Shown: positions 24,640 to 29,122, counted from the stretch's first letter. The stretch: 64,000 nt of DNA from a virus (IMGVR_UViG_2585427757_000006), one strand, 5' to 3'. Program-made: numbers and translations. Notes: generated from the letters alone by a model not told the origin.

Positions 24640-24889
24640 ATGACAATCACCGAGTTACGCCGATTCACTGTATAAGTAAACAGTATATTAGGCATAGATT
24701 CTTATAGGATCAAGAGTAAAAGTAACTCATTTTCAGTAATGATTCCATACATAGTAGGTATGGAATCATTGTGGGCCTTTTTTATAAAATCTGTGATTCT
24801 TCTCAGGATAAATTATCTAAACTAAAAATTGTGTTTTGTGTTGGCATCTGCTTGAATAGACGCATGTTTATTCAGATATGGAATAATCA

Positions 24890-25426
24890 GTGAACAACCA
24901 AATTCATTGGGACTACCCATTCTCAGAAGAATTCGGCAGTGGGATGGTACACAGACAATTCACTGTGGGAAGCACTATTTATGCCGTTGGGTTTGAACAA
25001 ATATTGACGATGGATGATTTCACACGTAAGGGAGTTGATATCCTAAATGTACATCCAACATTCCGGTTTCCTCTGAGTGGTGTATGGGGAGTGATTTTTG
25101 ACGAAATTGACCCTGTAGAAATGGATTTCAAAGGATTTCGGCATATCCAACATCAAGGCTTGGCAGGTGGTCAAGTGCTTTTGAATGTTGCAAGTATAAT
25201 CTTTGACCATTATACTGTTTGTAACGCAGGAGCTTATGTCTTCTCCGCCGCAGACGACCATCAGCATTTACGCAGAACTGACTTGGTTGACATTTACTGT
25301 AAGATACTAGGTCTAAATGGAAAACGTAAAAGTAGATTGTTCGCCAATGGTTTTCCTGGATGGGAGGCATACTGTGATGTACCAACAGGAGGAAGAGGCT
25401 ATGTCGTCACGACTGAAAGTTATTAA
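24890..25426 (+). CDS. hypothetical protein (178 aa), upstream partner of SymE-like ORF
   Basis: ORF track; plus-strand two-gene unit ending at a terminator hairpin. Confidence 0.4.
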   Translation: MNNQIHWDYPFSEEFGSGMVHRQFTVGSTIYAVGFEQILTMDDFTRKGVDILNVHPTFRFPLSGVWGVIFDEIDPVEMDFKGFRHIQHQGLAGGQVLLNVASIIFDHYTVCNAGAYVFSAADDHQHLRRTDLVDIYCKILGLNGKRKSRLFANGFPGWEAYCDVPTGGRGYVVTTESY

Positions 25427-25628
25427 TTATTACCCCACCTCTGCAGAACGTTTGAGCCTTGAAATGGGCGAAAGACTACAGAAAGCTGCTGGTCAGGATT
25501 TAAAGAACAAGTTGGGTTCAGGGGAAATTAAACTGATTAACGGTAAATATGTAGGTGAAAGCCTGAAAGTTAATAGCACCTCTATGCTAAAAGCGCGGTT
25601 GCGTAAAGCGTATATCCCCGCTAAATGA
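25401..25628 (+). CDS. SymE-like small protein (75 aa; start MSSRLKV)
   Basis: GGAGG Shine-Dalgarno before the ATG at 25401; YYPTSAERLSLEMGERLQKAAG resembles the SymE core as I recall it ([23 protein letters not shown]). Confidence 0.4.
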   Translation: MSSRLKVINYYPTSAERLSLEMGERLQKAAGQDLKNKLGSGEIKLINGKYVGESLKVNSTSMLKARLRKAYIPAK

Positions 25629-25658
25629 AAAGGCCTATATGGGCCTTTTCATTTTTAT
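25628..25658. terminator. hairpin AAAAGGCC-tatatg-GGCCTTTT followed by a T-run; bidirectional intrinsic terminator
   Basis: Sits between the convergent SymE-like ORF (stop 25626-28) and the glutaredoxin gene (stop 25655). Confidence 0.6.
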
Positions 25659-25900
25659 AGTGTACTCACCAGCGCCGCAAATTCCGTATACCCCCCAATA
25701 TGCTCTCCATGTATGAATATCTGAGGTATGGTATCCACTGGTTTACCAACCAGGTTGCTCAACGTTTCTTTGTTGATCCCCGCAGATGTAATATCTATAT
25801 ACTCATAATCACCGTAGCCATGTCCCTTTAGTTGCTTCGCCAACTCGACCGCACGTTTGCAGTATGAGCAGTTATCTCGTCCGTAGATAGTGATCGTCAT
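25655..25900 (-). CDS. glutaredoxin (T4 NrdC-like)
   Basis: Active site CSYC and IPQIFIHGEHIGGY. Confidence 0.8.
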   Translation of the reverse strand: MTITIYGRDNCSYCKRAVELAKQLKGHGYGDYEYIDITSAGINKETLSNLVGKPVDTIPQIFIHGEHIGGYTEFAALVSTL

Positions 25901-26073
25901 AACTTAACAAATACCTTTATAAATATTGATTCGAACATATCAGACTATACTACAAACAGATTTTTTTGATAAGTATGTAGTAACTTATTGATTGACTAGT
26001 AAACAATTGAAGTGATTACGACAATAGATTACAGTAAGGATTGCCTTGAAATGTACATTTTATAGAGGTTTTA

Positions 26074-26982
26074 ATGATTGGTAAGTTGTCTGATTCTTTG
26101 ATTGAAAATAAATACAACGAATTTAGAGAAGAAATATCTTTACTTTTTGACTATTTAAATCAGATAAATGATACAACAAAGAAAAATATAAAACGTCTTC
26201 TTAAAGAAGTGGAGTATGCACAAAATCCAGATACTATTATTAATATTAATGAAACTATTAAGATTAAGTGTGGCACAACGTTAGCTCGCCATTTATGTTC
26301 AAACCCATATACAGGTTCAACATTAGAGATAGGTAACAGCGCCATTGATTTAGAAGAAAAGATAAGATTGTGTAATACTTTGAAAAATAAACAATATCAG
26401 TGGGTTATTACTGAAGCCTATGAGTTACTGGAAGACTATATTGAGGCAATATATGTCTATACTGTATGTGTTCGAAATGATTTATGGTCCTCAAGTGATT
26501 TTGGTAAGGTTGAAGATGATGAAATTGGGAAAAGGGAAGTTTATTACAGATTATTAAAAGCAAAAAGTAACCCATCGAAAAAAATAACTAAAATTTTCAG
26601 AAATAAAATACCTGGCTTCAAAGAGATAGAAACAAACAACAAGATTGGCAAAAACTATCGCTTTAACATCAAGCTAATTGAACTACTAAGACATACAATA
26701 GTACACAATAGTGGACGATTCAATGATACAGAAAAATTTATAAATAAGGTTTTAGATGAATCTGAAATAAACGGTAAGAAAAGAGTTATTGGAGAAAGAG
26801 CTGTTAGAAGTTACATTACTAAAGTGCAAGAAGATGATATTGTGATGCTCTTAGAAAGACCATCTGAAATTTTAGGTTCTTTTGGTGGGTATTTTAACAG
26901 AGCAAAATTTTTACTAAGTGATATTTTAGAATACTCACTAATCATTAAAGAAGAACTAAAATCATATCTAGGCAATCATTAA
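26074..26982 (+). CDS. AT-rich hypothetical protein (302 aa) with an Rx4H (HEPN-like) motif; possible Abi-type cargo gene
   Basis: Very low GC, Lys/Asn-rich; LLRHTIVHNSGRF fits Rx4-6H; own terminator directly downstream. Confidence 0.5.
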   Translation: MIGKLSDSLIENKYNEFREEISLLFDYLNQINDTTKKNIKRLLKEVEYAQNPDTIININETIKIKCGTTLARHLCSNPYTGSTLEIGNSAIDLEEKIRLCNTLKNKQYQWVITEAYELLEDYIEAIYVYTVCVRNDLWSSSDFGKVEDDEIGKREVYYRLLKAKSNPSKKITKIFRNKIPGFKEIETNNKIGKNYRFNIKLIELLRHTIVHNSGRFNDTEKFINKVLDESEINGKKRVIGERAVRSYITKVQEDDIVMLLERPSEILGSFGGYFNRAKFLLSDILEYSLIIKEELKSYLGNH

Positions 26983-26989
26983 CAAAAAA

Positions 26990-27012
26990 GGGGCCGAAGC
27001 CCCTTTGGATTT
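26990..27012. terminator. bidirectional intrinsic terminator (GGGGCCGAAGCCCC flanked by A-run and T-run)
   Basis: aaaaaaGGGGCcgaaGCCCCtttgg; ends the plus-strand ORF at 26982 and the minus-strand tRNA cluster. Confidence 0.75.
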
Positions 27013-27080
27013 TGCGCTTAAAAAAGTGTTGCTAGGATGTTAGCAAGCTATGGTTAAGAACGTCTGCCGTAATTGTCTAT

Positions 27081-27638: not shown

Positions 27639-27643
27639 TAAAT

Positions 27644-27718
27644 TGGCGATGGTGGGTGGATTCGAACCACCGACCAGTTGGTTAACAGCCAACTGCTCTA
27701 CCGCTGAGCTACACCATC
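27644..27718 (-). tRNA. tRNA-Asn (anticodon GUU)
   Basis: Hand-folded: D-arm GCTCAGCGGTAGAGC, anticodon stem-loop GTTGG-CTGTTAA-CCAAC, T-arm GGTGGTTCGAATCCACC, CCA. Confidence 0.8.
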
Positions 27719-27984
27719 AATTCAGCACTGCCAGTATTTATTACTCAACAGTGCCAATCGCGACGGTTTAGTTTCTGCCAGGAAACGCACCGCTACTTGC
27801 ACTTTTCGTTTGTGCCAGACGCTTTCGACTTCGCTCAATAGTAGAAGGCAAAATCTTTAAGTAGATGATGTTTCTGAGGACAGCACCTACTTTGTAATTT
27901 ATACAATGTGATGTATGGAATCATTTGTTGTGAAAACAGGCACCAATGGCAACAGTGGTTAAACCTACACAACAATCCTGTCTT

Positions 27985-28106
27985 CACAACGTTGAGGCCA
28001 CTACTCCGATTGAATGTTTGCCCAACATGTTACATATCAACGCTCGCCGGTATCTCTGTGAATAGAACCTTAGAATTGATAAAAATGTAATGGCCTCAAC
28101 GTTGTG
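27985..28106. repeat. 16-bp perfect inverted repeat (CACAACGTTGAGGCCA / TGGCCTCAACGTTGTG) enclosing ~90 bp upstream of the tRNA cluster
   Basis: Arms at 27985-28000 and 28091-28106; shares the CGTTGAG core with the 27081 hairpin. Confidence 0.8.
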
Positions 28107-28281
28107 TGCTGGCTAACCATACCAGCCGGGCTACGTCGCCGCTTTTTAACCCAGTATAAACGACATAATTGAACAAAATGACGTAACAGGATGGGCGGTC
28201 AGTGGCTAAGAATCCGGGAGTCATATGGAGTTGAAAATATACCAACCGCCCATTCTGTTCCCTCCTGCGTTCTGCAATCAC
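28096..28281 (-). CDS. hypothetical small protein (61 aa)
   Basis: ORF track only; overlaps one inverted-repeat arm. Confidence 0.2.
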   Translation of the reverse strand: MIAERRREQNGRLVYFQLHMTPGFLATDRPSCYVILFNYVVYTGLKSGDVARLVWLASTQR

Positions 28282-28470
28282 ACTCGCTCAGTGTGTCCCA
28301 TTTCGGTAACGAGGCTGGAAACTGACCTCGCTGGTGTTTGGCTTATTAGGCTACTGCCAGATAGACTTCTTCGTTTGCACTTGTATTTAAGTTCAAACAG
28401 TCGCGTCTCAACGAAAACAAAGTCATCTTATACATAAAAGATAAGTAAGTAAATACTTATCAATATGTTT

Positions 28471-28761
28471 TTATTCGGTTGTGACTTTTTTGATCAAGGC
28501 CACTCTACGACTAGGTGTTCTTGTAATGGTGGCAGTGAATCGTTTCGCTTGGATAGTAATGGTTTCGTTCTCCTTAAGTTGCCCGTAGCGAGTTTCCACC
28601 AGGGTGCCAAGACGCCACAGACCATCATCGATACGTTTATGACTAGCAAATTTAATCAGCAACAGTTTTACGACTAACTGACCTACGTAAAAGGCGAATG
28701 CGACTCCGGCCGCTAAGAAATAGGTGGCCAACCACCATTCCCAAGAAGTTAAATTGCTCAT
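28471..28761 (-). CDS. small membrane protein (96 aa, N-terminal TM helix)
   Basis: WEWWLATYFLAAGVAFAFYVGQLVV hydrophobic N-terminus. Confidence 0.4.
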   Translation of the reverse strand: MSNLTSWEWWLATYFLAAGVAFAFYVGQLVVKLLLIKFASHKRIDDGLWRLGTLVETRYGQLKENETITIQAKRFTATITRTPSRRVALIKKVTTE

Positions 28762-28910
28762 TTTTTCACCTTTGTTTCATGAACTACCCGATACACACGC
28801 TTTCCGATGCACAGTGTTTTGGTTTTAAGTTCCTGCTTAATTAAATCACGACAGATGCCGAAGCCGATAAGGAAGCCACCCATAAAAGCTAATGAGATGT
28901 ATGGAATCAT
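28758..28910 (-). CDS. possible small membrane protein (50 aa; MIPYISLAFMGGFLIGFGIC...), below ORF-track cutoff
   Basis: AGGAG Shine-Dalgarno 8 nt upstream; stop overlaps the start of the downstream gene (ATGA). Confidence 0.3.
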   Translation of the reverse strand: MIPYISLAFMGGFLIGFGICRDLIKQELKTKTLCIGKRVYRVVHETKVKK

Positions 28911-29122
28911 TTTAACACTCCTGATTCTACTAATTGCTGTAGCAATACTTTCCCTTTATCAGTTAACTGGTAGTTGGCCGAACACCACGTTTCAGAAACG
29001 TTTGCAACCAACCCTAAACGCTCTAACTTAGCTCGCGTTTTAGGCTTCCAGTACTCAGGGAACTCCGGCCACTTACTGATTTCATGAAGCGTTTCCTTCT
29101 CCCGTTTACTTAATACGATCAT
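28907..29122 (-). CDS. hypothetical protein (71 aa)
   Basis: ORF track; GGAG upstream of ATG. Confidence 0.4.
   Translation of the reverse strand: MIVLSKREKETLHEISKWPEFPEYWKPKTRAKLERLGLVANVSETWCSANYQLTDKGKVLLQQLVESGVLK

Follow-up and report, generated by a model that had tools for sequence, protein, structure and literature searches.

What does an exact 13-nucleotide word, twice present as a perfect inverted repeat just upstream of a recombinase gene and recurring kilobases away, do in the genome of a phage-plasmid? The question is raised by a 64,000-nucleotide stretch of the virus IMGVR_UViG_2585427757_000006 (here called the window), an SSU5-like phage-plasmid with 98% identity to Escherichia phage CMS-2020a; it is closest to CMS-2020a and Cyrano (pLF82), with PhiR41_1 also near. 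A preliminary description of the window reported three copies of the word plus one inverted and offered recombinase arm-type sites or operators of a regulator as candidate functions. We find that the inverted repeat is most likely the core crossover site of the adjacent tyrosine recombinase and, as such, most likely a lox- or dif-like plasmid site, neither an arm-type site nor an operator of the neighboring helix-turn-helix (HTH) protein.

Copies of the repeated word

The 13-mer GTATGGAATCATT occurs exactly five times in the window, on the plus strand at 24758-24770, 27913-27925, and 28899-28911 and on the minus strand at 24738-24750 and 18708-18720. The word is therefore as real, exact, and palindromic as had been described, but the original count missed the inverted copy at 18708-18720, and one copy had been placed a single base too low (at 27912-27924), whereas that at 28899-28911 stands where it was reported. 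The copies at 24738-24750 and 24758-24770 form the perfect 13-bp inverted repeat with a 7-bp spacer that was noted at the outset (hereafter, the palindrome); it lies 99 to 131 bp upstream of the recombinase ATG (24639), in agreement with the earlier estimate of about 100 bp. The other three are referred to as single copies. An opposite-sense 15-nt word, AATGATTCCATACAT, is exact in four of the five copies, and a 16-mer, AATGATTCCATACATC, is common to all three single copies.

Recurrence by chance is improbable, as the preliminary description had argued: the window holds seven matches at no more than two mismatches, compared with a mean of 1.88 in shuffled sequences, and none of 100 shuffles reached seven. 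The whole-element search that it had proposed, applied to the 107.6-kb genome of the closest relative, CMS-2020a, returned the same five copies and none further at up to one mismatch. Nor are the copies part of a longer duplicated coding segment, because their frames and strands differ and no identity between copies exceeds 20 nt (the copies at 18708 and 28899 have a 20-mer in common). Their coding contexts are likewise different, the word encoding C-M-E-S-L in dnaE and, in the opposite sense, M-I-P-Y-I in a 50-amino-acid gene, with the third single copy being noncoding. Iterons or a partition site were rejected, since the copies are unclustered and occur nowhere else in the 107-kb genome, as was a promoter element: a sigma-70 scan finds none at any copy, hand alignments are inconsistent in spacing between lineages, and two copies at the palindrome would give face-to-face promoters.

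A palindrome accompanies the recombinase gene across species

Homologues of the recombinase were drawn from phages, plasmids, IMG/VR, and one genome per species, and the best palindrome within 450 bp upstream of each gene was recorded. Wherever the recombinase is at least 45% identical, a palindrome is present upstream (63 of 63 species loci), with 11 to 13 of the 13 positions matching and at a distance of 45 to 250 bp from the gene. The strict 13-7-13 geometry is found in 59 of the 63; at L078, L083, L084, and L107, the palindrome can be read only in a 9-nt-gap register with the outermost arm positions mismatched. The same search detected no palindrome upstream of outgroup recombinases at 34% identity or below. 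Two classes of arm track the enzyme, nnTGATTCCATAC at 57% protein identity or more and nnTGACTCCAGAC at 45 to 52%, such that the arm classes follow recombinase phylogeny. The palindrome is also retained in large Pantoea, Rahnella, Erwinia, and Ewingella plasmids that have neither phage genes nor the HTH neighbor.

Between the arms, at least 12 spacer sequences occur, mostly of the form CTANNNN (such as CTACTAT, CTATTAA, CTAAAGA, CTACCAA, and CTATAGA); every one is 7 nt long in strict sites, and they differ even amid near-identical flanks. A spacer that is free in sequence yet constant in length, set between conserved symmetric arms, is the hallmark of a tyrosine recombinase crossover site. The link to a recombinase drawn in the preliminary description is thus upheld, but not in the arm-type form: the anatomy is that of a core, the enzyme has no arm-binding domain, and no convincing arm-type repeats distinct from the core were found in 24560-24960.

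The recombinase is lambda-like but lacks an arm-binding domain

Alignment shows that the catalytic residues R185, K211, R284, H307, and Y316 are kept. The AlphaFold model of the protein (predicted local distance difference test score of 86) has a helical N terminus (residues 1 to 60) and resembles the core-binding and catalytic domains of lambda Int most closely, with Cre placed far lower in the fold search; a sequence search of the PDB returned no matches even at an E value of 10. No match to the arm-binding domains PF13356, PF09003, or PF02920 was found in the recombinase. Its nearest relatives are P4-type integrases carrying the PF13356 arm-binding domain, which is absent from this recombinase family, and the family is confined to the Enterobacterales. 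In surveys of phage-plasmids, the recombinase is listed among the persistent genes and is given no site (PMC7969092).

Directly downstream of the predicted recombinase promoter is a LexA (SOS) box-like sequence that is present as well in pMT1 and the Klebsiella relatives and absent from distant relatives and the Pantoea plasmids; it suggests that the recombinase gene is under LexA/SOS control.

The palindrome borders a variable cargo slot

Homology of the window to Cyrano, both CMS-2020a isolates, PhiR41_1, and a Klebsiella phage stops at 24769/24770, where the outer arm ends, and most of 60 sampled E. coli plasmid alignments stop at query base 1235, which corresponds to window position 24770. 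The two sides of the palindrome differ in their diversity: 89 distinct contexts comprise 11 flank types on the recombinase side versus 31 on the cargo side, and one spacer type is joined to as many as nine different cargo flanks. One locus, L023, is a chimera: it is 97.6% identical to the SSU5/Kluyvera elements through the small genes, the RNA region, and the cargo, and it changes at the first palindrome base to the E. coli type, with 96% identity to that lineage thereafter; its two parental types are only about 76% identical to one another.

The contents of the slot change from element to element. In Yersinia pestis pMT1 (L012), whose palindrome is at 9870-9902, the slot is occupied by the F1 capsule operon caf1R-caf1M-caf1A-caf1 (4113-9241), and this caf locus lies between a shortened structured-RNA region and the recombinase palindrome; in PhiR41_1 (L007, 10107-14801), the slot holds an AraC/usher/chaperone/subunit operon (chaperone-usher, fimbrial), and in Klebsiella, phoH and a glutaredoxin gene. 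At its far end, the slot has no fixed border. In a Cyrano lysogen, the first cargo gene, CYRAN_43 (L001, 9909-10463), is transcribed 723-fold above the prophage background (PMC9928086). These alignments indicate that the palindrome most likely marks the edge of a gene-swapping slot, that is, a module-exchange junction.

The 25 nt beside the palindrome on the cargo side (e.g., 24771-24795), otherwise unrelated, in many cases have a loose G-N-C-G, T-run, GAAATCT pattern, which suggests that the functional site extends past the arm; the added sequence might, for instance, be a promoter element, form a bend, or bind a host factor.

The element is found as a plasmid

When 5,426 complete E. coli genomes were searched with the recombinase-and-site segment, 255 places spread over 252 genomes were recovered, all of them on plasmids and none on a chromosome; integration at a chromosomal attB, as expected of a lambda-type attP, was seen at none of the 255. 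Across these E. coli places, the element lives only as a plasmid.

SSU5 itself has no recombinase-palindrome module and keeps the single copies, which could be taken as an argument against a link between the two. We rejected this argument: the SSU5 junction is unique, shared by 0 of 585 matching plasmids, and therefore represents a recent deletion in SSU5. Also rejected was a 218-kb cointegrate plasmid as a candidate for fusion at the palindrome, its gain in size having come from transposons elsewhere. A Klebsiella-type contig (L147, 4472-5541 and 14005-15995) is a pKpn-type deletion variant without the ligase gene, the small genes, and the whole of dnaE, and it is probably a defective element.

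Single copies and a structured RNA

The same three places are occupied by single copies in E. coli, Klebsiella, Salmonella, Yersinia, Kluyvera, and other lineages, despite divergence of the flanks and insertions and deletions. Over 31 diverged contexts that remained after thinning, TGATTCCATACATC (positions 3 to 16) is essentially invariant, and positions 1 and 2 and both flanks vary, noting that positions 4 to 13 of the word were fixed by the search and that positions 3 and 14 to 16 were free. At the dnaE site, the 16-mer is unchanged in E. coli, Klebsiella, Salmonella SSU5, Y. pestis, Kluyvera, and other lineages although the flanks have diverged; the sole variant (L036) has ACC for ATC, and the copy is absent from the pKpn clade. 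At the 50-amino-acid gene, synonymous positions are fixed across lineages, and the pKpn clade uses other codons for the same peptide. The location of the dnaE word in a variable stretch of protein, together with this codon usage, argues for selection on the nucleotide sequence itself.

Binding by the recombinase is favored by the start of the invariant block at position 3, the same outer boundary as that of the family-wide arm core; by the orientation of all single copies toward the palindrome; and by the pKpn clade, which at the homologous noncoding place has TGTGATTCCATACATC, matching the arms of its own palindrome and carrying the pKpn arm variant TGTGATTCC. The single copies are not classical arm sites, because they carry core-arm sequence and lie 3 to 6 kb from the palindrome. 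They are either recombinase monomer sites or segments complementary at the level of RNA.

Several further roles were discarded. A degenerate second arm, which would make the single copies full secondary sites, matches at only 0 to 7 of 13 positions at 6- to 8-bp spacing and is inconsistent between lineages. An inversion switch between 18708 and 28899, which have the arm plus 7 nt in common in the window, would break dnaE, and the 7-nt identity is lost in other lineages. Most non-E. coli lineages contain a further copy of the word inside the recombinase gene, which we set aside as evidence because it encodes a conserved V-W-N-Q-G motif and may be partly a coincidence.

The noncoding copy sits in a conserved region of about 700 nt for which RNAalifold predicts long helices and 124 pairs, 13 of them with compensatory changes, and in which a variable hairpin covaries between lineages (the SSU5 counterpart is L005, 41813-42527). 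An Rfam search of the region returned no family match. Its homologues are confined to two clades, SSU5-type and pKpn, and it has the look of a large structured RNA, so far undescribed, that is peculiar to phage-plasmids of these two types. In pMT1, homology to the region breaks off at the word, and the caf locus occupies the interval between that point and the palindrome.

Proposed mechanism

By the established chemistry of tyrosine recombinases, each 13-bp arm would be bound by one recombinase monomer, two 33-bp sites would synapse, and strands would be exchanged across the 7-bp spacer. The everyday job of the system would likely be multimer resolution, as performed by Cre/loxP for P1, a role that is likely because the element is plasmid-only. 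Recombination between co-resident relatives would then make the site a fixed junction for swapping accessory cargo on one side, and, given the apparent LexA control, the recombinase would be made mainly under SOS or induction. The single copies, which carry the recognition core of the arm plus ATC (TGATTCCATACATC), would most likely be single-monomer binding sites of the same recombinase with an accessory or regulatory role, which is the weakest step. Most economically, this would be a Cre/loxP-like system for plasmid resolution, its site serving in addition as an exchange hot spot for the adjacent module. The complete proposal, with the palindrome as a crossover site for multimer resolution and cargo exchange and the single copies as monomer sites of the recombinase, seems to us rather probable, if by no means assured.

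A number of observations count against this proposal. In the enzyme, the first box-II histidine, His281, is replaced by Arg in 36 of 41 aligned sequences. None of the 114 IMG/VR contigs carries two full sites, on which ground cassettes bounded by two such sites were rejected, and no direct cassette-insertion product was seen among them; a lack of two-site contigs is expected if directly repeated sites are resolved. Nor does the spacer keep one polarity with respect to the recombinase gene: the PhiR41_1 spacer CTACTAT (L007, 9686-9692) is the exact reverse complement of ATAGTAG in the window (24751-24757), with identical arms and with a recombinase-side flank that is 97% identical despite the flipped spacer, and another spacer likewise occurs in both orientations, as CTATAGA and TCTATAG. 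Simple recombination does not explain a flipped spacer, for which template switching at a perfect palindrome is a possibility. As to the single copies, isolated half-sites are normally inert for tyrosine recombinases, and distant phage-plasmids (L057, Xenorhabdus, and Morganella) with the same synteny and palindromes of their own have none, from which it follows that the single copies are not needed for the basic job of the recombinase. Moreover, arm positions 1 and 2 are not conserved in the single copies, whereas ATC, in spacer territory, is; one single copy sits inside a structured RNA; and transcription is leftward throughout, so that an orientation toward the palindrome is inseparable from one that is sense on the right and antisense on the left.

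Alternative explanations

We consider it improbable that the palindrome is merely an operator, whether for autoregulation of the recombinase or for the HTH repressor, with the single copies as further operators in the manner of the C1 operators of P1. Dispersed asymmetric C1 operators are indeed known in phage P1, the palindrome lies 20 to 55 bp upstream of the predicted recombinase -35 element, and the HTH gene is adjacent, but the palindrome stays with the recombinase where that gene is absent; the Pantoea, Rahnella, and Erwinia plasmids, which keep the one without the other, give no support to the earlier suggestion that it is the operator of the HTH regulator. The variable distance from the gene (45 to 250 bp), the free sequence and constant 7-nt length of the spacer, and the presence of two of the three single copies within coding sequence, with one noncoding, also speak against an operator, and a pure operator does not predict the base-exact match to the homology breakpoints and the crossover of the chimera. 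Even less credible is an intrinsic terminator or RNA hairpin to which the other copies are unrelated. A terminator scan flags 24736-24772, followed by GGGCCTTTTT, and the hairpin folds at -19 kcal/mol, but equally good folding is expected of any perfect palindrome, and the T-rich stretch, semiconserved on the cargo side, has a T-run that begins 4 to 9 nt past the stem and is missing in pMT1 and Rahnella. Such a terminator would, in addition, leave the phylogeny-tracking arms, the constant 7-nt loop, and the breakpoints unexplained.

The rival that deserves most attention concerns the single copies, with the palindrome still serving as the recombinase site: AAUGAUUCCAUACAUC in the 700-nt RNA, which would be transcribed toward tRNA-Asn, or in a processed piece of it would pair with messages, namely that of dnaE (a perfect complement) and, in most non-E. 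coli lineages, also that of the recombinase. We regard action at the RNA level as unlikely, although it has real points in its favor. The noncoding copy is inside a conserved structured region with compensatory pairs and no Rfam match, the single copies and the RNA are restricted to the same clades, and the region surrounding the tRNAs gives rise to transcripts in the Cyrano lysogen (PMC9928086). The genes all lie on one strand, such that the word is in sense in the RNA and the 50-amino-acid gene and in antisense in dnaE and the recombinase gene, and, by our own reading, G-U pairing would survive four of the six substitutions seen in the word, a count that is not significant. Pairing would, however, reduce to coincidence the identity of the word with the recombinase arm (13 of 13 positions in dnaE, in every lineage), and the first base of the conserved block is also that of the family-wide arm core. 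The copy in the 50-amino-acid gene, having the same sense as that in the RNA, offers no possible target; no covariation of partners is visible, as the word hardly varies; and RNAalifold pairs part of the word internally (6 bp). That the single copies form the pairing segment of a previously undescribed RNA that would hold lytic or SOS functions (dnaE and, in most lineages, the recombinase) down in the lysogen is a still more doubtful proposition.

Organization of the locus

Coordinates of the palindrome, the single copies, and the neighboring features are collected in Table 1.

Table 1. Features of the window around the palindrome (positions counted from its first nucleotide)
Feature	Position	Strand	Basis or remarks
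33-bp recombination core site (candidate)	24738..24770		Arm AATGATTCCATAC at 24738-24750, spacer ATAGTAG at 24751-24757, arm GTATGGAATCATT at 24758-24770
Tyrosine recombinase ("integrase"), 367 amino acids	23536..24639	-	Pfam PF00589 and PF22022 (integrase central domain)
Sigma-70-like promoter of the recombinase gene (predicted)	-35 TTGATC, 24713-24708; 17-nt spacer; -10 TAATAT, 24690-24685	-	Sequence reading
LexA (SOS) box-like sequence CACTGTATAAGTAAACAGTA	24666..24685		Consensus match, CTGT-N8-ACAG; directly downstream of the recombinase promoter
HTH (XRE-type) protein gene	23155..23541	+	Convergent with and overlapping the recombinase gene
Variable cargo slot	24771..27642		178-amino-acid open reading frame (ORF), glutaredoxin, 302-amino-acid ORF, tRNA-Ser/Thr/Tyr; begins at the outer edge of the palindrome
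Single copy AATGATTCCATACATC in the dnaE-like gene (16610..18973, -)	18708..18723	+	Antisense; encodes C-M-E-S-L in an otherwise variable protein stretch
Single copy AATGATTCCATACATC, noncoding	27910..27925	-	About 190 nt upstream of tRNA-Asn, in the 3' part of the structured RNA region
Single copy AATGATTCCATACATC over an ATGA stop/start overlap	28896..28911	-	71-amino-acid ORF at 28907..29122 and 50-amino-acid ORF at 28758..28910 (M-I-P-Y-I)
Conserved structured noncoding region, about 700 nt (candidate large RNA)	27719..28430	-	Contains the copy at 27910-27925; between the small genes and tRNA-Asn
HNH_3/NUMOD3 homing-endonuclease ORF	15827..16561	-	Interrupts the dnaE-like polymerase gene

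The HTH protein, presumably the lysogeny repressor, does not partner the palindrome, because its gene is missing beside the module in the Pantoea, Rahnella, and Erwinia plasmids. In the Cyrano lysogen, the HTH gene beside the recombinase is transcribed 10-fold above the prophage background (PMC9928086). Between this gene and a 70-amino-acid ORF heading the cobT-cobS-dnaE operon is a 250-bp divergent region (22905-23154) with several short inverted repeats and no copy of the 13-mer, which looks like the immunity (repressor/cro-like) switch of the phage-plasmid. The dnaE-like gene (14661-18973) is split by the free-standing homing-endonuclease ORF into parts of 787 and 389 amino acids; dnaE of Cyrano is a single uninterrupted gene of 3.5 kb.

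Comparison with known recombination systems

The palindrome most likely works like loxP, FRT, or dif/cer, with an enzyme of the lambda/P4 type minus the arm-binding domain and a 7-bp overlap. As in the Cre/loxP system of P1, a tyrosine recombinase of a plasmid prophage is paired with two 13-bp inverted arms around a short asymmetric spacer, there are no arm-type sites, multimer resolution is the expected role, and the site is a recombination hot spot. Unlike loxP, the spacer is 7 bp rather than 8; the protein is not Cre-like in sequence, being nearest to lambda Int in fold and to P4-type integrases in its relatives; and the recombinase gene is apparently SOS controlled. A published search for Cre-type sites demanded 8-bp spacers (PMC10250229), which the palindrome would for that reason have escaped.

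With the lambda Int core site (C-O-C') and the P4-type integrases, the system has in common the 7-bp overlap, the core-binding and catalytic fold, and the Pfam domains PF00589 and PF22022; it differs in having no N-terminal arm-binding domain, in its perfect 13-bp arms as opposed to weak core sites, and in that chromosomal integration of the present element is not seen in E. coli genomes. Copies of the core-arm motif outside the crossover site recall TnpI/IRS (Tn4430 and Tn5401) and the third 13-bp element of FRT. In Tn5401, extra core-arm copies are found also at the distant transposon ends and have a regulatory role; those described here, however, are 3 to 6 kb away, in genes and an RNA region, and include a conserved ATC. 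Similarity to integron attI consists in a recombinase gene with a site just upstream, at which variable accessory genes begin and of which the first is highly expressed in Cyrano (PMC9928086), but the enzyme is not of the IntI type, there are no attC-like sites or site-bounded cassette arrays, and the far border of the slot is not fixed.

Significance

Literature searches found no description of the palindrome as a site, and a search for the literal sequence gave only unrelated primers. SSU5-type phage-plasmids are common, with relatives in many strains of Klebsiella, Enterobacter, Salmonella, and Yersinia, and in pangenome graphs, their resistance-gene insertions adjoin the PhoH and DNA ligase genes (PMC9600943), both of which belong to the neighborhood of the palindrome and cargo slot. 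A 13-7-13 site served by a lambda-like enzyme without accessory arms could supply genome engineering with a new recombinase/site pair. What might go beyond the known kinds of recombination site is the large RNA, together with the conserved single copies; if the single copies do act through RNA, the identity of the word with the recombinase arm would be a hint that the two systems are connected. For the phage-plasmids themselves, definition of the site would explain both why the element is never found integrated and why its main accessory slot has a base-exact border.

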